Assembly (NCBI GenBank): GCA_964404805.1
Contig: CAYOLJ010000001.1
Coordinates: forward strand, 2,172 to 41,192
Direction of reading: 5' to 3'
From: an uncultured Candidatus Peribacteria bacterium
GTDB taxonomy: Bacteria; Patescibacteriota; Gracilibacteria; Peribacterales; Peribacteraceae
Length of the DNA: 39,021 bases
Numbering within the stretch: position 1 is the stretch's first letter; the number at the start of each line of letters is the position of its first letter. The position numbers were made by a program, and so were the translations under genes. Shown piece by piece: positions 3,534-16,418 of this stretch. Under the pieces are notes generated by a model that ran no database searches, was not told the DNA's origin, and saw only the letters and a list, made by a program, of their open reading frames with translations.

Positions 3534-4939
3534 CACTTCTCTGGCTCCCTGTCGGCACCGCACTCCCCACTCTCTCGGGCTGGCTGCTCGTACGATTGTG
3601 TGAAGGAAACCACCCCGTACTCCTGCGACTCGAACGCTGGACGCTTGGATTCCTGCTGGGAGTCACCGCCACGATGTTCGTGACGTTCCTCGCACACATC
3701 AGCGGACTGGTGCTGTTCACGCGCTGGGGTTTTCTCGGCGTGCAAATCGCCCTCACGGCGGTACTCGCCATCCTGCGATTCCTTCAATGGCGACTCTCTC
3801 ACGCGCACGTTCGCCCTGCCTCACTCCCTTTGTCTCATCCCACGCGTCTTTGGATGGTGATCCTCATCGCGGTGCTCACGCTCTGGACACTCGTTAAAAT
3901 CACCTTCGGCTCCTTCATTCTCGTTTCGACACCATCATACTTCGATGACTCACTCAAGAACTGGAACTACCGAGCCAAGGTTTTCGCCTTCACGCAAACA
4001 CTCGATGTCGACATCACCGAGAACGGCGGAGGAGATGTACTGAGCAGTTACCCTCCCACGGTTTCGCTCTTCAAAGCTTCACTCGCCACACTGGAAGGAG
4101 GGTGGGACGGGAGCCTCGTGAACAGCGTGCATATCCTCTGGTTTATCGCTCCACTCATACTGCTCTACTGTGCGCTCCGCCGCCGTACGGGGTGGCAATG
4201 GGCTCTACTGGGCACCTATCTGCTCGCGAGTCTGCCGCTCTATTTCTTCGACGGCCTCAACGCCTATGCGGATGTCTTTCTCTCGGGTCATCTGCTCGCC
4301 GCAGGCGCTGCGCTCACACAAGGACTCACGGAGCACGATGCTCACCGTAGACAAAGCTGGCTGCGCCTGTTCGCTCTCGCTGCGGGCCTACTCGTGTTTA
4401 CCAAAAACGAGGCTCTCGTGCTCTACCTGCCATTACTGCTTGCCGTGCTCATCGGTGGACTCGTATTCCTGAAACAACGCAAGAGGATGACGAGTCGGGA
4501 GGTTTGGAAGACGATCGCATGGACAGTAGGATGGCTGCTTGCGATCGGAGCGCCGTGGGTGCTCTTCAAATGGGCACACGGGCTGGCGTTCGGCAACGCC
4601 AAGGCGATTACCTCCAGTTACTCCTTCGGCTGGCAATCGGGAGTGCTCTACGTCTTGTGGGTGAATACGTTCTTTGAGGGCAACTGGCACTTGCTCTTTC
4701 CCCTCCTTCTGCTCCTTCTCGTTCTCAAACACAAATACCTGCTGCGATCGACCGTGACTCCTCTTGCGCTCTTCGTGCTCGCGGCGCTCCTGCTTCAGAT
4801 ATCGCTCTTTCTCTTCACTTCGCTCTCCGTTGAAGCCCTGAAGCAGACGGGGCTCGCCCGCGGCTTCGTACAGTTGGCTCCGTTGGTGGTACTGCTCACA
4901 ACACTCCTTGCACACGAGGCGCTGCAGAAACGCGAGTAA
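3530..4939 (+). CDS. Polytopic integral membrane protein, possibly a GT-C-type glycosyltransferase (weak)
   Basis: The 469-aa ORF has 10 or more hydrophobic segments. A YFDD motif sits in an early loop, reminiscent of ArnT/PMT-like enzymes. It is translationally coupled to the upstream gene. The functional call is tentative. Confidence 0.6.
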   Translation: MTLLWLPVGTALPTLSGWLLVRLCEGNHPVLLRLERWTLGFLLGVTATMFVTFLAHISGLVLFTRWGFLGVQIALTAVLAILRFLQWRLSHAHVRPASLPLSHPTRLWMVILIAVLTLWTLVKITFGSFILVSTPSYFDDSLKNWNYRAKVFAFTQTLDVDITENGGGDVLSSYPPTVSLFKASLATLEGGWDGSLVNSVHILWFIAPLILLYCALRRRTGWQWALLGTYLLASLPLYFFDGLNAYADVFLSGHLLAAGAALTQGLTEHDAHRRQSWLRLFALAAGLLVFTKNEALVLYLPLLLAVLIGGLVFLKQRKRMTSREVWKTIAWTVGWLLAIGAPWVLFKWAHGLAFGNAKAITSSYSFGWQSGVLYVLWVNTFFEGNWHLLFPLLLLLLVLKHKYLLRSTVTPLALFVLAALLLQISLFLFTSLSVEALKQTGLARGFVQLAPLVVLLTTLLAHEALQKRE

Positions 4940-5007: not shown

Positions 5008-6276
5008 ATGCCATCCTACGCTGCGTTCCTCGGTCACCAGCCTCGCATCTCGCTGGCAGAACTCTCGGCCACTGTGCCGGGTTTCACGCTGCGCAGCATC
5101 CTCAACGAATCCATCGTGCTGTTCGAAAGCCCTGTCGAGCTCGATGCGGAATTCCTCGATGCACTCGGTGGCGTCGTAGTGGTCGCACGTCAGGTGACCG
5201 ATCAGGCAGTAGCCCTGAGTGAAGTACCGGCCATTCTCGTGAGTGAACTCAAAGACGCCAAGCGCGGCAAAGTGGTGTTCGCCCTGCGTACATTCCTGCT
5301 CCCAAAAAAGACGATTCACTCCCTCTACCGACAGTGCAAAGAGGCCCTGCGCAAACAGGGTCGCCCTTGTCGCTACGTGGGGAGCGAACGCGAGCCGGCT
5401 GCTCCGGTTCTCCTGCGGGATGCAGGCTTACTCGACCCCAAGCGCGGATGCGAACTCGTGCTTCTGCTCGAAGGTGACGACGAAGAGAATCTCTCGCCGT
5501 GGATCGGCCGCACCGTGTGGGCACAGAACGTGAATGCCTACACCAAGCGCGACATGGCGAAACCTGTGCGCGATACCACAGTGGGATTGCTCCCGCCCAA
5601 ACTTGCACAGATTCTGCTCAATCTGGGTGCGTGGCTCGCGCGGGGATGCCAGACACCCGTACCGGATGTTACATTCAAGAAACCCAAGGAGCCCGAGCCC
5701 TTTACGGTGTTCGATCCATTTTGCGGTACTGGCGTCATCCCCATGGAGTGCCTCATGCGCGGATGGCATGTGCTGGCATCGGATATCGCGCAGAAGGCGG
5801 TGAACGGGTGCAGCAAGAATCTGGAATGGACAAGAAAGGAGTGGAAGATCCTCAAGAAGGATGTCGATGCCACAGTGTGGAAGCAGGATGCCACCAAGCC
5901 GTTTTTCTTGAAGAAACTGCCCGACCTCGTCGTGAGCGAGACCACGCTTGGCCCCGCACTTGAAGGCCGTCCCTCACAAAAATCCGCCGCCAAGATGAAG
6001 ACGGAGCTCGAGAAACTCGAGGCGGCCTTCATCGAGAACTGCAGCAAGACCCTGCCGGGCGTGCCGCTGGCACTCACGTGGCCCTTCTGGAAGATTAAGA
6101 ACGAAACGATCTTCCTCGAACGCGTGTGGGAAGCCGCCCACGCTGCCGGGTACAGCGCCACTCTGCCGCCAGGTGTTGCTCCCAGCCGTGCTGATCGCCT
6201 CTCGCTGCTCTACCGCCGCCCCGATCAGTTCGTAGGCCGCGAGGTCGTGCTGCTGATCCCCAAGAAAAGGAAGTAG
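5008..6276 (+). CDS. SAM-dependent methyltransferase (UPF0020/Trm11-like RNA or DNA methylase)
   Basis: Motif I is VFDPFCGTGVIPMECLMRGWHVLASDI. There is no canonical (D/N)PPY motif IV; the corresponding position reads VVSETTLGP. Confidence 0.7.
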   Translation: MPSYAAFLGHQPRISLAELSATVPGFTLRSILNESIVLFESPVELDAEFLDALGGVVVVARQVTDQAVALSEVPAILVSELKDAKRGKVVFALRTFLLPKKTIHSLYRQCKEALRKQGRPCRYVGSEREPAAPVLLRDAGLLDPKRGCELVLLLEGDDEENLSPWIGRTVWAQNVNAYTKRDMAKPVRDTTVGLLPPKLAQILLNLGAWLARGCQTPVPDVTFKKPKEPEPFTVFDPFCGTGVIPMECLMRGWHVLASDIAQKAVNGCSKNLEWTRKEWKILKKDVDATVWKQDATKPFFLKKLPDLVVSETTLGPALEGRPSQKSAAKMKTELEKLEAAFIENCSKTLPGVPLALTWPFWKIKNETIFLERVWEAAHAAGYSATLPPGVAPSRADRLSLLYRRPDQFVGREVVLLIPKKRK

Positions 6277-6342
6277 CCTGTTTTGCAGCGAAAAGTGAAA
6301 CTTCCTCTTTTTCTCTGGCAAGGAGTATCCTTATACTGCAGT

Positions 6343-6376
6343 AGCAGTGGGTTAGTCACTGCTGTGTTCTTTTCGC
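6343..6376 (+). terminator. Candidate rho-independent terminator after the methyltransferase gene
   Basis: Stem AGCAGTG (6343-6349), loop GGTTAGT, stem CACTGCT (6357-6363), followed by the T-rich GTGTTCTTTTCGC. Confidence 0.4.
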
Positions 6377-6418
6377 TTCATCGGTCCCCTGTAGCTCAAT
6401 GGTAGAGCAATCGGCTGT

Positions 6419-6971
6419 GAACACTCACTATGGTATACTCACATGTGTATGCCAGAGAAACGTACCTACGCCGACCGTGCGGAATACCTGAAAAAAGCGG
6501 TAGCCAAGAGGCGGAGGAAACTTCGTAAAATGGTTGTCGCATACAAAGGAGGAAAATGCGTCATCTGTGGATACAAGAAATACATTGGCGCATTTGCACT
6601 TCATCATATCGATGGTTCGCAAAAAGAGTTTGGACTTTCAGCGCGAGGATTGACCCGTTCGTGGGAAAAGGTGAAACGTGAAGCTGATAAGTGTGCGCTG
6701 ATATGCGCCAACTGTCATCAGGAATTGCACGGTGGTGTAACGCAGCTTCCCAGGGAAATCCTGGGTCGATAACGAGGTGAATTGCTGGAAACCCTCCCGC
6801 GTAAGCGAAGGGCAATCAGCAGCCAAGCCCTGACTCTCTCAAGGAGTCTCGGAAGGTTCAGAGACTATCCTTAATGGAGTAGTCCCGCACTTGCGGGACG
6901 AAGCGCCTCGCACCCTGTATATGATGGGTGATGATATAGTCCACTCCTTCTGGAAACAGAAGGGCAATGTG
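6419..6971 (+). ncRNA. Group I self-splicing intron (553 nt) in the tRNA anticodon loop
   Basis: The classical conserved elements are present: P AATTGCTGGAAACC (6780-6793), Q AATCAGCAGC (6814-6823), R GTTCAGAGACTAT (6856-6868) and S TGATATAGTCC (6932-6942). P:Q (TTGCTG/CAGCAG) and R:S (GACTAT/ATAGTC) are complementary. There are GNRA-capped hairpins (CGC-GTAA-GCG at 6798-6807; CCTTCTG-GAAA-CAGAAGG at 6946-6963) and a hairpin GTCCCGC-ACTT-GCGGGAC (6882-6899). U precedes the 5' splice site and G is the last intron nucleotide. Confidence 0.85.
6443..6772 (+). CDS. HNH homing endonuclease encoded inside the group I intron
   Basis: The 109-aa ORF carries CVICGY...LHHIDGSQKEF...KCALICANCHQELHGG, i.e. 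a Cys4 zinc site plus the H-N-H signature. Confidence 0.8.
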   Translation: MCMPEKRTYADRAEYLKKAVAKRRRKLRKMVVAYKGGKCVICGYKKYIGAFALHHIDGSQKEFGLSARGLTRSWEKVKREADKCALICANCHQELHGGVTQLPREILGR

Positions 6972-8530
6972 TAACCGATCGGTTGCTGGTTCGAGTCCAG
7001 CCGGGGGAGCCAATTCTTATTTATTATAACACTGCGGTTATCCAGCAGAACCTTGATTACCTTAGCGTATTTCACTTCTGTGATTTTGCGGTCTTTCATA
7101 ACAAACTTCTCGAAGAAAAGCCCTATTAGATGTTCTTTAAGATCTGGCTCTGCTTCTTTGTAGGTGAAGTGCAGGTTGTCGGTCAGAGCCATAAGTCTGG
7201 CGAATACGTCCATATTCTCTTCACGCTCGTCGTCGAGTTCACTAAGACGTTTTTTGATCTGCTTGATGTCCTCAGTAACTTTGCCATGCTGTCTTTTGTA
7301 GGCCTCAGCATCAATCACTCTGTCTGCCCTGTCCTCTTCCAAATTGTCTCTGCGCTTCTCAAGGCGCATTTTACGGTTCAGCAATGCTCTCCTCTGGCCG
7401 TCTACGCAACGATGAGTCTCTTCAAGGATTACTTTCGCTCTGGCGATAATTTTCTCCATGAGCGGTCCTGTGAGCTGTACCTTTTTAAACTGGTCAGCAA
7501 TCATCTTCTCCAACTGCGCTGCTGGAATATTTTGACCCTTGTTGCTATGTTTTTTCTTAGTCAGAGAGCAGTGGTAATACGCTGCACCACTCTTTTCTTC
7601 GTGAAGCTCAGCGGTCATTCTGCCTCCACAAACTCCACACTGAAGGAAACGACGAAAAAAGAACCGTGAATCATGCTTTCGGGAACGGTTTGCGTTCTTG
7701 TTCAAAGATGCCAACACTTCCAGATTCTGATCAAATGTTGGCTTACTAATAAGGGGCTCATACGTTTCATTGCCGTCAGAATCTCTATTGGGATACAATA
7801 TACCTTTATAGGTCATCATTCCATAATAGAACGTATTTCTAAGCATATCTATAAACGATGATTTTGGCATTTTCTTCCCATGCTTAGAACGCAATCCACG
7901 CTCGAACATGATGTTGCTCAACTTCTCCACCGTGTAGTTCCCTGTAGAAAACAGTTTCAGTGCCTCCTTCACAAGTTCACCTTTGACTGGATCTACTCTG
8001 ACAACGTTGTGCTGACTGTCTTCGGTTCCAATGTTCACATTAATGTAACCCAGAGGAGCCCATCCAGGCCATTCTCCACATTCTATCTTTTTCTGCATGG
8101 AGCGGCTCGTCTTGGCACCATAAAGGTTGCTATAAAACTCGTTAACAGTAGACATGATTCCATCCATCATTATGCCTTCGGGTGTCTCCATCTCTGTAAA
8201 AGGTTGATTAACAGCTATTAAGCGACATCCATTCTGCTTTAGAAATTGCTGCACAGTGTGATGGTCGATGTTACTTCTAGCAAACCGATCCGTTTCTGAG
8301 ACAAGGAGAAAGCTTACCTTATGCTCTCCTATGAAATTAAGAGCATCATTAAAGCCAGGCCTGCCTTCCACTGTCCGTCCGCTTTTACCGTCGTCACGAT
8401 ACTCTCCCATAACTTCGATACCATTCGCCTCGGCATATTTTCGACACATAGAAAGCTGGTTCTCCACCGACTTACCTCTAGCCTGTTCCTCATCGCTTAC
8501 GCGCCCGTAGTTAACTGCTGTTCCTTCCAT
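6839..8530 (-). CDS. Large serine recombinase (integrase). The last ~58 codons are antisense to the tRNA 3' exon and the intron core.
   Basis: The N-terminus has the resolvase catalytic domain (NYGRVSDEEQ...LLVSETDRFARS). It is followed by a recombinase domain, a zinc ribbon (CGVCGGRMTAELHEEKSGAAYYHCS) and a coiled-coil. The tail ...NKNWLPRLDSNQQPIGY... is the translated reverse complement of the tRNA. Confidence 0.9.
   Translation of the reverse strand: MEGTAVNYGRVSDEEQARGKSVENQLSMCRKYAEANGIEVMGEYRDDGKSGRTVEGRPGFNDALNFIGEHKVSFLLVSETDRFARSNIDHHTVQQFLKQNGCRLIAVNQPFTEMETPEGIMMDGIMSTVNEFYSNLYGAKTSRSMQKKIECGEWPGWAPLGYINVNIGTEDSQHNVVRVDPVKGELVKEALKLFSTGNYTVEKLSNIMFERGLRSKHGKKMPKSSFIDMLRNTFYYGMMTYKGILYPNRDSDGNETYEPLISKPTFDQNLEVLASLNKNANRSRKHDSRFFFRRFLQCGVCGGRMTAELHEEKSGAAYYHCSLTKKKHSNKGQNIPAAQLEKMIADQFKKVQLTGPLMEKIIARAKVILEETHRCVDGQRRALLNRKMRLEKRRDNLEEDRADRVIDAEAYKRQHGKVTEDIKQIKKRLSELDDEREENMDVFARLMALTDNLHFTYKEAEPDLKEHLIGLFFEKFVMKDRKITEVKYAKVIKVLLDNRSVIINKNWLPRLDSNQQPIGYTLPFCFQKEWTISSPIIYRVRGASSRKCGTTPLRIVSEPSETP
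7002..7018. repeat. 17-nt tRNA-3'-end / junction sequence CGGGGGAGCCAATTCTT (attL candidate). Its internal 9-mer GGGAGCCAA is 7005-7013.
   Basis: An exact copy lies at 32469-32485. The 9-mer is also found at 30850-30858, at the GC-content break. Confidence 0.7.
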
Positions 8531-11389: not shown

Positions 11390-12113
11390 GTAAATGCCTC
11401 CATTTCGGCGAGTATTTGCTCATGGCAGCAATGAAGTCATCATTATGGTTTCGGACAAGCAGATGCACCATCTCATGGATCAGCACGTACTCAATGCTCT
11501 CGATCGGTTTCTTGGCTAACTCAGTATTCAGCCAAATTCTTTTTGCCTTGGAGTTACAGGTGCCCCATTTTGTCTTCATTGTCCTGATACATACCTCGGC
11601 CACTCTAACATTCATTTTCTTCTCAAATTTCGCGACATACTGCGGGATCAACTGCCTGAGCTGTTGTCTGTACCAAGCATGCAATATTTCTTCTCTCTGG
11701 TCCCTTGAAGTACCTTTGCGAATATAGAGCTCAATAGTGCCATGTTTTAGAACTACTCTCGGAGCAGCTTCCCGCTCTATCACTTTCAGTAAATATCTTT
11801 GTCCAAGGTAGTAATGGCTTTCACGTGTGACATACTCCCTAGAAGTCTCCCTTTTTTGCCTTTGAAGCTTGGCCTGCTGTTTTCGTATCCAGCCCAGCTT
11901 GGAAATACTAAATAGTCGGATGGTTTCTAGATCCATCTGTTGTGGTGCTGAAATTGTTACTCTGCCATGGGGTGGATACACACTCAGATGAACGTTCTTG
12001 ATGTTCTTGTGAATGACATCAAGGCAAATGTCGCCCAGCTCAATTGTGCTTCTCCTAGTATTCATATTGTTGCTTAATGATCTGGAAGATTCTTTCAACT
12101 TCAACTTTATCAT
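11340..12113 (-). CDS. M48/YgjP-like (DUF45) zinc metallopeptidase associated with type I R-M
   Basis: An HEMVHL (HExxH) motif lies near the C-terminus, and the position after hsdR is typical. The probable true start is the ATG at 12065 (MNTRRSTIELG), which overlaps the hsdR stop by 11 nt. Confidence 0.8.
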   Translation of the reverse strand: MIKLKLKESSRSLSNNMNTRRSTIELGDICLDVIHKNIKNVHLSVYPPHGRVTISAPQQMDLETIRLFSISKLGWIRKQQAKLQRQKRETSREYVTRESHYYLGQRYLLKVIEREAAPRVVLKHGTIELYIRKGTSRDQREEILHAWYRQQLRQLIPQYVAKFEKKMNVRVAEVCIRTMKTKWGTCNSKAKRIWLNTELAKKPIESIEYVLIHEMVHLLVRNHNDDFIAAMSKYSPKWRHLREELNRSALGHVEWSY

Positions 12114-15100
12114 TCAGTACTTTAAACAAGGCCTGCTTGATCAGATTCTCGCTAGGGATATTGCCTCGCCAGTCGGCACGCCTGCTAGCGAATACCGCAG
12201 CATCAATGGAAATCGCCAATTCCTCACTCTTCCCAAGATTACGGTACAGCGCCCGTTGCGCGTTTGTTTCTATTCCTCTTGGAAGGTCGTCACGGGTGAG
12301 ATTCGCCACTCGTCTCACCAGCTCAAGGATCTTCTTCAAATACTCTTCATAACTCACGGCGTTTGTTTTCCGCTCTCTCACAATCTCACTCAAGAGCTTG
12401 GACATCTCCTCAAAATACACAGGGTCGATCAGGTGATCCTTGATGATCTTGGTGCGTACGTTGTTTTCAATGGTCTCCGCCACCGCTTCTTTACTGCTTC
12501 GTATCCCCTCCGGTAGTGATTTGATCGCATCTGCGAGTCCGCTATTGATCATGATATCGAGTAGAGACTGGTCGCCGAACGGATCAATGCGCCTGCTGTC
12601 TTCCGCTTGAATGTAGGTATCGATCAGGTGCCGCATGTCGGCCTCATAGGTCTTGAGATCAAGCTTTTCACCGCTTGCCATGCGGATTTCCTCTCTGAGC
12701 TTCAGATACTTGTCCACTTTGCCTTTGATAACCTCCGTCTCATCGGCGTTGTACCCGGCCTCGCTCATCTCATCTGCGATGTTCGCATACGAACGTATCA
12801 GCCCGACCGTGTGCTTGTAGAGCGCTGCGCGTTTCATCTCACTGTCTTTCAAGTCCTGCTTGTTCTCCGGATTGCCACAGAAGTAACGAATGTACGCCAA
12901 ACTATCCTTTGGAGGTTGGACTGGCTCACAAACCAGAGCAATGGCTTCTAGAGCGTTATCCAGTCGTTCTTTGCCCTTCGCCAAGCGATCTTTCAGCACG
13001 ATATCGATGTCCTCTTTCTCGAAATTCTCCGAGTCCAATTCGGACGTGTATGCCGAATACGCACCTTCCAGTTTCTGGAATAAGTCCTTGTAGTCGACGA
13101 TGTAGCCGAAATCTTTGTCCTCACCATCCAAGCGGTTCACGCGACAAATCGCCTGGAACAGGCCGTGATCCTGCATCTTCTTGTCGATGTAAAGATATGT
13201 GCAGGGAGGCGCGTCGAAACCAACCAGAAGCTTATCGACTACGATGAGCAGTTTCATGTTTGCCGGTTCATCAATGAATTGCTTCTTAGCCTTGTCCTCG
13301 TAGGTTTCACACTTGGATTTGCCTGGTTCTGCAGCAACATCCTGAAGGAGATCGGTATAAATCTTATACACATACTCCTTCTCGGTTTCGGTATTCTCAC
13401 CCGTTCCCTCGGTTGTAATATCTTTCGTTACGGGATTGTACGAGGTAATCAGGGCACATTTCCCTTTGAGGGAAGTATTCTGGAATAACTCAAAATAGCG
13501 AGTCGCTTCGTAGATTCTTCCCGCGACCAGAATGGCATTCCCGAACTCAGAATCCAGCCGTCGCTTCGTACTGAAGTCGAGAACGATGTCCTGCACTATC
13601 TTCTCCAGACGAGATTTTGAGCTGAGCACCTGCTGCATCGTGCCCCACTTCTTCTTCAGTTCATGTTTCTGGAAGTCATTGAGTCCTTTGGTCTTCGCAT
13701 CAAACCATGCATCCACCTTCTCCTCTGACGAGAGCTTCGTATCAATGTCCCGCGCCTCATAGATCAAATCCAAGACGACCCCATCCTCCACCGCCTCATT
13801 GAATTTATAGGTGTGGATGTATCTGCCGAATACCTCTTGGCTTGTCTGCTTGTCTTTCTTGAGCAGAGGCGTCCCGGTGAAGCCGATGAATACGGCGTTT
13901 TTCAGGATCGCCTTCATCACCTTGTGCATCTTGCCGGACTCCGAGCGGTGACACTCATCCACGAAGACGAACAACTCGCCAACGGTATTGCTGGGGGCAC
14001 TCTGCAACTCCTTAATGTACGCGTCGAAATTACTCTTGTCGCGTGTCCCGAATTTGTGGATGAGTGAGCAAAGAAGGCGAGGCAGTGGATTGTTGAGCTG
14101 CTCCATTAGGTCCTTGCCGCTTGTCGTGCGTTTCATTTCCCTTTCACCTGCCCCATGAAAAACTCGCTCGATCTGCTTATCCAGCTCAATCCGATCCGTC
14201 AGAATAACCACCCGCGCATTGGGATTATTTTCCAGTATCCACTTGGCCAGCCACACCATGATGAGGCTCTTGCCGCTGCCCTGCGTGTGCCAAATGATGC
14301 CGCCTTCCCGTCGCTTCACAAACTCCTGCGCCGCCTTGATACCGAAATACTGATGAGTTCTCGGCAGCTTCTTGATCCCACCGTCAAACAGGACAAAATC
14401 ATACAGCACTTCCAGCAGTCGCTTCTTGTCGCACATCTTGAGCAGATATTTATCCAGCTGAAGCATGCTGTCGTCCTCCTCGTCCTCCTTCCACTTCAGA
14501 TAGTACTTTTCGGGAGTGAGAATTGTTCCGTACTTGAGTCCTTCGGTGTCGTTACCGGCAAAGATAAATTGGACAGTAGAGAAGAATGACTCGATAAATT
14601 CTTTCTGTTGGTTGACTATGCTCTGACGGATGCCGTCGCCGATAGAGACGGTGCTCCGTTTCAGCTCTATCACGCCAAGTGCGATACCGTTCACATACAA
14701 CACAATGTCGGGGCGCTTTTCACGATTCCCCTGAATCGTCACTTCCTCCGCGATTGCGAAGTTGTTCTTCGTTGGATTCTTCCAATCAATCAGTTCAATA
14801 GTTTCATTGTTATCAGCCACGTTTTCTTTCGCCTTGATCCCATAGCGAAGCAATTTGTAGACATTCTGATTGTTGGTGTAGAGGCTTTCACCGTAGTTGT
14901 TGGCTGCGGCACGCAGTTTGTCCAAAGCACGCGCAATCAACGTATCGCTATACCCACGACCGGAGAGATATTTCCTAACCTCTCCCTCTTCAATGTTGCT
15001 GTTCTCCAGCCGATCTTCCCAGTTACCCAAATACTCATACTTCAACCGATCCCGAAACAGCGCCACAATTCGATTCTGGGTTCTGCGTTCTGGTTGGCCT

Positions 15101-15123
15101 GAATCTTGATTGGCTGGATTCAT
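12055..15123 (-). CDS. hsdR: Type I restriction enzyme R subunit
   Basis: 1022 aa. The helicase motifs are HTQGSGKS (Walker A) and FVDECHRS (DEAH box). ATGA overlap with the hsdS stop. Confidence 0.95.
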   Translation of the reverse strand: MNPANQDSGQPERRTQNRIVALFRDRLKYEYLGNWEDRLENSNIEEGEVRKYLSGRGYSDTLIARALDKLRAAANNYGESLYTNNQNVYKLLRYGIKAKENVADNNETIELIDWKNPTKNNFAIAEEVTIQGNREKRPDIVLYVNGIALGVIELKRSTVSIGDGIRQSIVNQQKEFIESFFSTVQFIFAGNDTEGLKYGTILTPEKYYLKWKEDEEDDSMLQLDKYLLKMCDKKRLLEVLYDFVLFDGGIKKLPRTHQYFGIKAAQEFVKRREGGIIWHTQGSGKSLIMVWLAKWILENNPNARVVILTDRIELDKQIERVFHGAGEREMKRTTSGKDLMEQLNNPLPRLLCSLIHKFGTRDKSNFDAYIKELQSAPSNTVGELFVFVDECHRSESGKMHKVMKAILKNAVFIGFTGTPLLKKDKQTSQEVFGRYIHTYKFNEAVEDGVVLDLIYEARDIDTKLSSEEKVDAWFDAKTKGLNDFQKHELKKKWGTMQQVLSSKSRLEKIVQDIVLDFSTKRRLDSEFGNAILVAGRIYEATRYFELFQNTSLKGKCALITSYNPVTKDITTEGTGENTETEKEYVYKIYTDLLQDVAAEPGKSKCETYEDKAKKQFIDEPANMKLLIVVDKLLVGFDAPPCTYLYIDKKMQDHGLFQAICRVNRLDGEDKDFGYIVDYKDLFQKLEGAYSAYTSELDSENFEKEDIDIVLKDRLAKGKERLDNALEAIALVCEPVQPPKDSLAYIRYFCGNPENKQDLKDSEMKRAALYKHTVGLIRSYANIADEMSEAGYNADETEVIKGKVDKYLKLREEIRMASGEKLDLKTYEADMRHLIDTYIQAEDSRRIDPFGDQSLLDIMINSGLADAIKSLPEGIRSSKEAVAETIENNVRTKIIKDHLIDPVYFEEMSKLLSEIVRERKTNAVSYEEYLKKILELVRRVANLTRDDLPRGIETNAQRALYRNLGKSEELAISIDAAVFASRRADWRGNIPSENLIKQALFKVLNDKVEVERIFQIIKQQYEY

Positions 15124-16418
15124 ATTAGTCGTATCTTACCTGTTAATAGCACCTGCATCATACCCTGCTTTAGCATGTCGTATTTATCACGCTTTTTCTC
15201 TAAGCTCTCAATCTCTACGTCCATATTGGAGAGAATCGTGGCGATGGCAATTTGTTCAAGTATTGAAGAGGGAAGCAAAAGCTTGAAGATCTCTACATCC
15301 CTAATATTGAGTCCAGGCTGTGCAGCCCCCTTGAGATAAAGAGAAACTTGGCACTTTCCTATGTCGCTTAGAAGCGCATACTTGCAATAGGAACTAGATG
15401 CCTTATCTGGATCGATCGCGATCCTTGCTGTTGTTTGAGTTAGATTTGCACCTTCAAGCCATTCTGGAATGACTTCAACATAGCCGCAGTATCCAACAAT
15501 GGTCATAATCAAATCTCCTGCCTTTACCCTAGCATTACGATACCGGTCTTCAATTATTGGACTTACTCGGAATAATTCATAAGGCTTAGCCCAACCCTTA
15601 ACCTCAGAGTAATCTTGACCTCTAATCATATATCGCCCATTAGGATCAAACTTTCCTGGTTGAACAATCCCGTAGCGGATACTCCTAGATGGATCTACGA
15701 GGCTTGCAAGCGGAGTAATACTCCAATCATCTGGGATATCGCCTAATTCAGTCCGTTTAAATCCCTTTATTTCATCAAACCCCGGCAACCTCTTTTTACC
15801 AGTGAGGAGCTGCTGCATCGTGCCTTGTTTGATGGCTTTCTTTTTGGCGATTAGTTTCTCCAAGTGTTCTATCAGCGCATCGGTGTCGGAGAGGACGGCG
15901 GCGATGGCGGATTGCTGGGCTTTAGTCAAAGGTAATGGCAATAAGATTGATTTAATAATTTCGCCACTAAGGTTCGGCTGACCTCCTTGCGTATAAGTCT
16001 GAATAAGCCAATTTTTCTTATATATAAAATATTGGTATAAATAAATTGGGTCTTCATTTTTTGGTATCAAAGCCAGAATTGCCTGGTTAATTGCCCCTTC
16101 GATTCTTGTGAAGCCAGCCACACCTGCAGTAGCACCGTAAAGTGCAAGTAAAAATGTATTCGATTTTACTATTTTTGCAGATGAGTTTTCGAGACCCTTT
16201 TTTGTAATTCGACCGTTAACTGCATTAATTATTCCCATGTTTAAATCGCTTGATGTAATCCACGGGATATTACCGCCATAGTAAGAAGGGTTAGAAGTTG
16301 AAGGCGTGCCACCAGAGTATGCAACACAAATATCCCCCAATTTTTTTACATCCCAATCCTGTGGAATTACTCCTAGATCGGTTTGTTTGTAGCCGGTTTT
16401 GATCGGTGCAATTCCCAT
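15120..16418 (-). CDS. hsdS: Type I R-M specificity subunit
   Basis: 432 aa with two target-recognition halves. These are separated by and end in the conserved helices (LPLPLTKAQQSAIAAVLSDTDALIEHLEKLIAKKKAIKQGTMQQLLTGK; ...LEKKRDKYDMLKQGMMQVLLTGKIRL). Confidence 0.9.
   Translation of the reverse strand: MGIAPIKTGYKQTDLGVIPQDWDVKKLGDICVAYSGGTPSTSNPSYYGGNIPWITSSDLNMGIINAVNGRITKKGLENSSAKIVKSNTFLLALYGATAGVAGFTRIEGAINQAILALIPKNEDPIYLYQYFIYKKNWLIQTYTQGGQPNLSGEIIKSILLPLPLTKAQQSAIAAVLSDTDALIEHLEKLIAKKKAIKQGTMQQLLTGKKRLPGFDEIKGFKRTELGDIPDDWSITPLASLVDPSRSIRYGIVQPGKFDPNGRYMIRGQDYSEVKGWAKPYELFRVSPIIEDRYRNARVKAGDLIMTIVGYCGYVEVIPEWLEGANLTQTTARIAIDPDKASSSYCKYALLSDIGKCQVSLYLKGAAQPGLNIRDVEIFKLLLPSSILEQIAIATILSNMDVEIESLEKKRDKYDMLKQGMMQVLLTGKIRLI

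Follow-up and report, generated by a model that had tools for sequence, protein, structure and literature searches.

A predicted mobile group I intron with an HNH gene in its P1 loop interrupts the tRNA-Asn gene of a Peribacteraceae bacterium

Introduction

Group I introns of bacterial tRNA genes are known from tRNA-Leu, tRNA-fMet, tRNA-Ile and tRNA-Arg. Here, we describe an intron of this class that splits a tRNA-Asn(GUU) gene and that carries the gene of a putative HNH endonuclease in the loop of its first helix, P1. The locus lies in a stretch of 39,021 nt from an uncultured Candidatus Peribacteria bacterium of the family Peribacteraceae (assembly GCA_964404805.1, contig CAYOLJ010000001.1, forward strand, positions 2,172 to 41,192). 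This whole stretch is hereafter called the window, and all coordinates given without a locus number are positions within it.

In functional terms, the nearest precedent for an intron that homes into a tRNA gene is that of tRNA-fMet in Synechocystis, which encodes an endonuclease (Bonocora and Shub 2001, as cited in PMC3984707). The tRNAscan-SE 2.0 paper lists only the fMet and Ile2 cases (PMC8450103), and a remark that tRNAs of the candidate phyla radiation (CPR) can carry group I introns is made without detail (PMC8172020). The 'group I introns' of 22-49 nt reported in other cyanobacterial tRNAs (PMC5733544) are too short for group I ribozymes. The phage introns known by 2014 were all located in protein genes, despite the many tRNA genes of phages (PMC3984707). 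The same review sets out a model of collaborative homing followed by invasion, in which a free-standing endonuclease beside an intron lacking an open reading frame (ORF) is proposed as the preceding step. Described free-standing homing systems include SegB in the tRNA cluster of T4 (PMC2330249), mobE/I-TevIII of T4 (PMC2790892) and F-CphI with the psbA intron of cyanophage S-PM2 (PMC6083498). Our full-text literature search retrieved no description of a bacterial tRNA-Asn group I intron; its coverage was incomplete and an earlier description is possible. As far as the searchable literature reaches, the novelty claimed for the intron in a preliminary description of this DNA therefore holds.

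A tRNA gene split by a 553-nt insert

The interrupted gene is on the plus strand, as are all intron features described below. Its 34-nt 5' exon (6385-6418) provides tRNA positions 1-35, that is, the 5' strand of the acceptor stem, the D arm, the 5' strand of the anticodon stem and C32, U33, G34 and U35. The 41-nt 3' exon (6972-7012) provides U36, A37 and A38, the 3' strand of the anticodon stem, the variable loop, the T arm, the acceptor strand, the discriminator base G73 (G7009) and an encoded CCA. Between them lies an IA-like group I intron of 553 nt (6419-6971), composed of a 30-nt leader, the HNH ORF within the P1 loop and a 231-nt core (6741-6971). Removal of the 553 nt yields a canonical 75-nt cloverleaf with the anticodon loop CUGUUAA, which ARAGORN calls tRNA-Asn(gtt); the predicted junction reads ...AATCGGCTGT joined to TAACCGAT.... 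The exon and intron coordinates of the preliminary description proved exact on re-reading of the sequence, and its warning that the gene is easily missed or mis-called was borne out. A default run of ARAGORN returned zero tRNAs across the 39-kb window, and with introns allowed (option -i) the split gene was detected but labelled Thr(tgt) in the window and many homologs, and His in 2 homologs. The isotype labels of the intron mode are unreliable because the first workable join ('Thr') gets picked. We consider it highly probable that the insert is a mobile, self-splicing, IA-like group I intron with an HNH gene in its P1 loop, which splits the tRNA-Asn(GUU) gene of this Peribacteraceae bacterium between U35 and U36.

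A conserved, phage-like ribozyme core

Homologous loci were collected by exact protein look-up (12 loci) and from species-representative genomes (80 loci), and a custom exon finder recovered a split tRNA gene in 77 of 83 loci. The covariance search proposed in the preliminary description gave a full-length match of the window to the Rfam model Intron_gpI (RF00028) at 6716-6963, with 81 bits against a gathering score of 50 (E=3.2e-19). It is the sole Rfam match in the window, and every homolog with a split tRNA that was tested scored 55-84 bits. The P, Q, R and S elements that had been read from the sequence are indeed present (P, AAUUGCUGGAAA, 6780-6791; Q, AAUCAGCAGCC, 6814-6824; R, GUUCAGAGACUA, 6856-6867; S, AUGAUAUAGUCC, 6931-6942), as are the P4 and P7 pairings and the hairpins capped by GNRA loops.

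An alignment of 39 cores supports this fold. Standard pairs occupy 82.7% of the cells, compared to 68.8% after shuffling (0 of 500 shuffles as high), and changes on both sides are seen in 47 of 64 pairs. The covariation score is 0.373, versus at most 0.159 when the partners are slid by 1-3 columns. Compensatory changes occur in P3, P4, P6a, P7.1, P7.2, P8 and P9, and P7 is invariant.

The core begins with P2 (6749-6765), a hairpin with the loop GAAAU in the window and GNRA tetraloops in relatives. The compensatory changes in this helix (CCAGG/CCUGG in the window, CGCC/GGCG in locus L001, CUAGG/CCUAG in L011) are undercounted in the 39-core statistics, because the MAFFT alignment is out of register there. 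P3 (6773-6779/6904-6910) is paired in 97.4% of cells, with three pairs changed on both sides, and P4 (6783-6788/6816-6821) in 97-100%, with swaps of GC for CG and of GC for UA. P5 (6792-6794/6810-6812; 88% paired) is extended by P5a (6798-6807), which has a GUAA loop at 6801-6804. In the segment 6822-6856, P6 (6823-24/6855-56) is invariant and 100% paired, and the P6a/b extension is paired in 88% of cells with 6 of 6 pairs changed on both sides. P7 is formed by 6861 and 6863-6867 with 6937-6942 (5' strand, 6859-6867); it contains a bulged A6862, is 99.6% paired and essentially invariant, and its G6863-C6941 is presumed, by analogy, to be the guanosine-binding pair. P7.1 (6868-6878; 94% paired) and P7.2 (6882-6899; 7 of 7 pairs changed on both sides) follow, a region between P7 and P3' that the Rfam alignment leaves as a 34-nt insertion. 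P8 (6911-6930) is 96.9% paired with 5 of 5 pairs changed on both sides, and P9 (6945-6964), with a GAAA loop at 6953-6956, has 7 of 8 pairs so changed. A 7-nt tail, CAAUGUG, ends the intron in omega-G6971. The insert is by these features a group I intron whose P3-P9 core, P3/P7 pseudoknot included, is maintained by compensatory changes, and it presumably splices itself.

In the Michel-Westhof classification, subgroup IA is recognised by the hairpins P7.1 and P7.2, located between P7 and P3'. On this criterion, the intron appears to be IA-like and of phage type. BLAST comparison of the core to phage genomes yields matches of 70-76% to introns of Staphylococcus phages, Bacillus phages (in split DNA polymerase genes), Alteromonas phages and coliphages. 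Given the presence of P7.1/P7.2 and these nearest DNA matches, the intron is not akin to the compact IC3 introns found in genes of tRNA-Leu, -fMet, -Ile and -Arg.

Splice sites and identity of the tRNA

Formally, the exons can be joined in three ways, namely, as Asn (CUGU/...G/UAA), His (CUGUG/.../AA) or Thr (CU/...G/UGUAA). The preliminary description counted two, overlooking the Thr(UGU) join, which also obeys the group I rule of a U before the 5' splice site and a G at the end of the intron. It favoured the Asn join on that rule, and the covarying P1 pair, the terminal G and the intronless ortholog described below support the choice. P1 is formed by C32, U33, G34, U35 and the first intron base, G(+1) (6415-6419), with the internal guide sequence C-GCAG (6741-6745). 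The GCAG of the guide sequence, from which none of the 39 aligned cores departs, lies directly 5' of P2 and is the partner of C32-U35. The first intron base varies across the 77 loci (G 60, A 10, C 4, T 3), and in 72 of 76 distinct loci it pairs with the base preceding GCAG (G-C 56, A-U 8, C-G 4, U-G 3, G-U 1). Because this pair covaries next to the invariant GCAG, U6418 is expected to wobble with G6742, which places the 5' splice site after U6418, that is, after U35. In relatives without the ORF, the two strands of P1 are only 3-8 nt apart, for example, CUGU/G-UUAGUUA-C-GCAG in L021. At the other end, the intron closes with a G in 77 of 77 loci, although G was not imposed by the search, and UG directly precedes UAA in 76 of 77. 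If the anticodon loop has 7 nt and the intron ends with G6971, the product is CUGUUAA, and therefore Asn(GUU); a splice join between U35 and U36 is thus supported by the compared sequences. An extension of P1 by position 31 and the base after GCAG is paired in 52 of 76 loci without covariation and is not claimed. The hairpin that Rfam draws at 6720-6752, with two mismatches, was likewise set aside: its 3' strand is reread as the guide sequence, because the ORF-less introns lack the 5' strand.

The body of the tRNA gives the same answer. In a metagenome scan for uninterrupted genes with the anticodon stem, variable loop and T-arm of the window, the anticodon being left as NNN, 15 of 15 carried GTT. 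Among E. coli tRNAs, the spliced sequence best matches tRNA-Asn, the resemblance noted in the preliminary description. Its second argument, G73, stands as well: G7009 is the discriminator here, and G73 and U1-A72 are present in every locus listed. G73 is an identity element of tRNA-Asn.

The complete genome of Ca. Peribacter riflensis contains, at the syntenic position, an intronless tRNA-Asn(GTT) gene, to which the window exons are 100% identical over the 5' 25 nt and the 3' 32 nt. In both, AlaRS (alanyl-tRNA synthetase), two ORFs and a methyltransferase gene precede tRNA-Asn in this order, and the AlaRS of the window is 84-90% identical to Peribacter proteins. Downstream of the tRNA, no synteny was found between the window and either L011 or P. 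riflensis, and exact-sequence look-up of the methyltransferase and AlaRS of the window returned no record. The P. riflensis gene is an empty-site allele. Thus, the presence of the intron varies within one family: the window and L011 have it, whereas syntenic P. riflensis does not and has no HNH gene nearby. This patchy occurrence, like the spread of the element over CPR lineages described below, speaks for mobility.

The HNH gene and its associations with tRNA-Asn

The ORF within the P1 loop (6449-6772; 107 aa plus stop), which the preliminary description did not mention, encodes a putative HNH endonuclease with more than 1400 homologs at 70-90% identity. The motif CxxC...HH...CxxCH...H (C37, C40, H52, H53, C86, C89, H90 and H94) is invariant in 24 of 24 aligned homologs. 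One homolog has a precomputed match to PF01844, and phage relatives are annotated as HNH endonucleases. A PDB sequence search with the protein found no close solved relative, and the profile gave a weak match to a maturase/reverse-transcriptase chain of a group II intron (6me0, chain residues 469-555, E=5e-4). The final 11 codons of the ORF overlap the guide sequence, P2 and the joining segment J2/3. Upstream, the extended -10-like motif TGGTATACT (6431-6439) ends 9 nt before the ATG. Motifs of the form GGTATAxx occur in 54 of 73 distinct HNH upstream regions, and in 45 of 55 the distance from the end of the hexamer to the ATG is 9-10 nt, in intron-borne and free-standing HNH genes alike. TGGTATACT is therefore a candidate internal extended -10 promoter, which would probably give rise to a nearly leaderless HNH mRNA.

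Relatives of the protein are encoded in at least 575 species-representative genomes. All those whose names were read are either Patescibacteria (CPR) lineages, including Peregrini-, Giovannoni-, Curtiss-, Sacchari-, Doudna-, Uhr-, Andersen-, Kazan and Paceibacteria, or mislabelled metagenome-assembled genomes. Among the 74 loci with both parts resolved, the HNH gene is inside the intron in 62 and free-standing by an intron-containing tRNA-Asn gene in 12. In eight of the latter, it lies 4-67 nt upstream of the tRNA (L021, L023, L024, L026, L027, L032, L049 and L075), in two it overlaps the tRNA start (L055 and L073) and in two it is just downstream (L037 and L040). The introns beside free-standing HNH genes are ORF-less, 192-257 nt long and score 56-81 Rfam bits. 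In one of these loci (L049, Paceibacterota), a match to the LOOT RNA of Rfam (72 bits, 3820-3943) is located ~240 nt downstream of the tRNA-Asn locus.

In the six closest annotated phage relatives examined (crAss-like DAC15, Bacillus BCU4 and Bastille, Aeromonas LAh_6, Klebsiella KP13-7 and cyanophage S-H38), the HNH gene abuts an intronless tRNA-Asn(GTT) gene (6/6). Of the loci of the best 80 relatives in IMG/VR, 59 have tRNA-Asn as their nearest tRNA, within 250 nt; with loci clustered at 85% nucleotide identity, this holds for 25 of 41 clusters, whereas Asn accounts for 14% of all tRNAs in these loci. The recurrence of tRNA-Asn adjacency in CPR, phages and IMG/VR suggests that this HNH family is dedicated to tRNA-Asn genes. 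Where ARAGORN called introns in the phage loci, it had spuriously fused adjacent tRNAs, and a group I match was obtained in L119 only.

That locus (IMGVR_UViG_3300001199_000352, 1434-2053), classed as viral, is the sole viral contig with an intron-containing tRNA-Asn (70 Rfam bits), and its HNH protein is 66% identical. It may represent a CPR island or prophage beside the tRNA, comparable to the arrangement in the window, or a true phage-borne tRNA intron. Distant HNH relatives (45-50% identity) in FelixO1 (L114), S-SRM01 (L115) and Aci05 (L116) adjoin tRNA-Ile, and separate branches of the family may each be tied to their own tRNA gene. Several features of these phage loci are missing from the annotations or misnamed: tRNA-Asn(GTT) of Bacteroides phage DAC15 (L107, 1283-1354) and the HNH ORF of Synechococcus phage S-H38 (L110, 1501-1791) are unannotated, as is the entire tRNA cluster of Aeromonas phage LAh_6 (L111, 470-1614), which is overlapped by 'hypothetical protein' coding sequences, and a feature of Acinetobacter phage Aci05 (L116, 1655-1726) is labelled 'tRNA-Val-GTT', GTT being the Asn anticodon. 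Prevotella phage Lak-B5 has two tRNA-like T-arm/acceptor fragments upstream of its HNH relative (L108, 1270-1350); no complete tRNA was called in this locus and no clear tRNA-Asn was found upstream of the HNH gene.

Proposed mechanism and alternative readings

Transcription of the pre-tRNA would run through the intron. C32-U35 and the first intron base would pair with C-GCAG (6741-6745) to form P1, setting the U6418.G6742 wobble at the cleavage site, and the core (6741-6971) would fold into P2-P9 with the P3/P7 pseudoknot and P7.1/P7.2. Exogenous guanosine would attack after U6418, upon which G6971, the last intron base, would occupy the G-site in P7, and the 3'-OH of U35 would attack before U6972, leaving an intact CUGUUAA anticodon loop. 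The HNH protein, probably expressed from its own extended -10 promoter, is predicted to cut intronless tRNA-Asn genes and thus to drive homing of the intron.

Several observations weigh against this interpretation. The HNH ORF extends over the guide sequence and P2, so that on a single transcript translation and splicing could disturb each other. Against the Pfam HNH model, the protein in the window scores 18.2 bits, under the curated cut-off of 21.4 bits. A simple sigma-70 scan for two hexamers found no promoter in 6150-7150, so that the case for the internal promoter is one of motif conservation. For P10, pairing of the 3' exon UAA with bases 5' of the guide sequence gave no convincing candidate; a UUA is present there in many relatives, inconsistently, and is missing in the window. 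Furthermore, the loci were gathered via the HNH gene, which places the frequency of the intron in CPR, as well as ORF-less introns in HNH-free settings, outside the sample, and the sequences compared are all metagenome assemblies, from which splicing is predicted at the DNA level.

An unlikely alternative, albeit one with some appeal, is that splicing depends on a protein helper, either a host factor or the HNH protein in the role of a maturase, in which case the HNH protein might no longer function in homing. P1 is short (5-6 bp) and P10 weak. The ORF is conserved at 70-90% identity although its hosts are very divergent, which would not usually be seen in a purely selfish endonuclease and could mean a second function. 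However, the core is complete in the ORF-less introns of 13 loci (192-257 nt), indicating that the intron RNA does not need the ORF in cis, and in phages the free-standing relatives adjoin tRNA-Asn genes that have no intron, so that they cannot act as maturases there.

It is very improbable that the locus is a decayed relic, that is, a tRNA pseudogene whose intron no longer splices, with Asn codons decoded by a gene elsewhere. In its favour, the visible genome amounts to only 39 kb, and P. riflensis (CP013064.1, L117) carries a scrambled relic of the tRNA and intron beside its intact intronless tRNA-Asn gene, so decay does occur at this locus. The relic (16051-16117 and 16338-16351) consists of the tRNA upstream flank with the first 7 nt of the gene, a 25-nt piece with 92% identity to P7.2 of the window, and the D-arm; 78 nt further downstream, the 3' end of the tRNA (GCCGGGGGAGCCAA) is found once more. 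This arrangement suggests that P. riflensis once had the intron and lost it, with integration scars left behind. In the window, by contrast, the core helices, guide sequence, omega-G, cloverleaf and invariant HNH residues are all intact, the exons are identical to those of the functional-looking P. riflensis ortholog, and compensatory changes maintain the structure across 39 lineages. In addition, the 46 tRNA genes reported for P. riflensis, without mention of introns (PMC4736985), leave little room for duplicates.

The remaining alternatives concern the splice join rather than the intron. To the Thr(UGU) reading, with splicing after U6416, G6969 as the last intron base and the loop CU/UGUAA, we attach hardly any credence, despite its conformity with the U and G rule in the window and the Thr(tgt) label that ARAGORN assigns in intron mode. 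It demands a G at position -3 from UAA, which is found in 49 of 77 loci, the other 28 having ATG or TTG there, and in P1 the partner of U6416 is A6744, with no G wobble. Moreover, the same stem and T-arm bodies carry GTT in all 15 uninterrupted genes, the syntenic P. riflensis ortholog is Asn, and G73 and U1-A72 are features of Asn rather than Thr tRNAs. The probability of the His(GUG) reading is negligible: a join via the AAC microrepeat (6420-6422 and 6973-6975), or after G6419, does give a valid cloverleaf with the loop CUGUGAA, and the two His calls of ARAGORN and a G at position -1 (6384) agree with it, but it breaks the group I rules, requires G as the first intron base where 17 of 77 loci have another, relies on a repeat missing in L001 and L011, lacks C73 and runs counter to the tRNA body and ortholog in the same way as Thr. 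The absence of the G-1:C73 pair, invoked earlier against His, is thus correct for C73 (G73 is found) and incorrect for G-1.

With the self-splicing, mobile intron in tRNA-Asn(GUU) as the preferred reading, a broader history can be outlined, which we would as readily doubt as defend. One HNH family would be dedicated to tRNA-Asn, and extant genomes would retain each step of the assembly: the HNH gene beside the intronless gene in many unrelated phages, beside an ORF-less phage-like IA intron in some CPR, and inside the P1 loop in most CPR. The composite element would then have spread through hundreds of species of Patescibacteria, probably residing in the sole tRNA-Asn gene, where splicing would be essential.

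Genomic neighbourhood

Between the methyltransferase gene and the tRNA, a 10-bp hairpin with a T-rich tail (6341-6365) is preceded by TTATACT at 6331-6337. The hairpin is a possible terminator, the count of such structures being not above that in shuffled sequence, and TTATACT a possible promoter of the tRNA.

Directly after the tRNA CCA begins a low-GC island of ~24 kb (7013 to ~31000; 37-51% GC versus 52-59% in the flanks). It encodes two serine recombinases, a type I restriction-modification system (HsdR, 12058-15123, HsdS and HsdM), a DUF4238 protein and a 1227-aa TPR-PIN protein of the TPR-GreAB-C-PIN type. The region looks like an integrated defence island for which the intron-containing tRNA-Asn gene served as the attachment site. 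No direct repeats of the tRNA 3' end were found as island attachment sites, including at the far boundary, which is to be expected given the serine recombinase. The ORF of the large serine recombinase (6839-8530, minus strand) meets no stop codon ahead of the island/tRNA junction and continues, in antisense, across the 3' exon of the tRNA and P9-P8 of the intron (...NWLPRLDSNQQP...), gaining ~58 residues. As the ORF runs past the junction, the integrated recombinase has a C-terminus encoded by host DNA. In Giovannonibacteria (L001-L010, 2575-4348), the intron-containing tRNA-Asn gene is directly followed by foreign-looking genes for an HTH protein, a UPF0758 protein and an Eco57I-type restriction-modification enzyme, and the 3' end of tRNA-Asn may be a recurrent integration hotspot.

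Implications and comparison with known systems

Annotations produced with default tRNA finders may miss tRNA-Asn or carry a 'Thr' or 'His' label at such loci. Completeness checks and codon-usage inferences are affected for genomes that bear the HNH gene (at least 575 species, with a split gene in 77 of the 83 loci examined). If the gene is single-copy, these reduced bacteria would depend on a ribozyme to decode Asn codons. The three HNH arrangements constitute a natural test bed for collaborative homing followed by invasion, and the compact endonucleases (~105 aa), which probably recognise a tRNA gene, are possible tools.

That a tRNA gene can harbour a group I intron together with a homing endonuclease is in itself known; new are the tRNA-Asn host, the position 35/36, the different ribozyme subgroup and the host clade. 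The intron resembles the known bacterial tRNA introns in its insertion within the anticodon loop after a U (here U35 of CUGU/UAA), in the formation of P1 from anticodon-loop bases, and in being overlooked by standard tRNA finders (PMC8450103). It differs from them in the host tRNA (Asn), the site (35/36), the Patescibacteria hosts and the presence of an ORF in most copies; furthermore, the known introns are assigned to subgroup IC3 (PMC3984707), a compact type without P7.1/P7.2, helices that are conserved here. Since the present ribozyme is of a different, phage-like type, tRNA genes were invaded more than once. Compared to the tRNA-fMet intron of Synechocystis, the predicted endonuclease is of another family (HNH), the tRNA and intron subgroup are others, and the ORF occupies the P1 loop, with its end running over the guide sequence; the cleavage specificity of the HNH protein is predicted from genomic association.

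The phage introns of IA2 type (Bacillus SPO1-like DNA polymerase introns with HNH endonucleases and Staphylococcus Twort-like introns) share with the tRNA-Asn intron the core (70-76% over the conserved helices) and P7.1/P7.2, and the endonuclease predicted here is likewise assigned to the HNH family, but they are located in protein-coding genes rather than in a cellular tRNA gene. The free-standing homing systems are paralleled by the HNH relatives in phage tRNA clusters beside tRNA-Asn and by the ~12 CPR loci in which the HNH gene flanks an ORF-less intron. T4 SegB is a GIY-YIG enzyme, whereas the present family is HNH. Unlike in those systems, a single family of predicted endonucleases shows all three stages with the same target gene; the three arrangements match the stages of the model of collaborative homing followed by invasion (PMC3984707).

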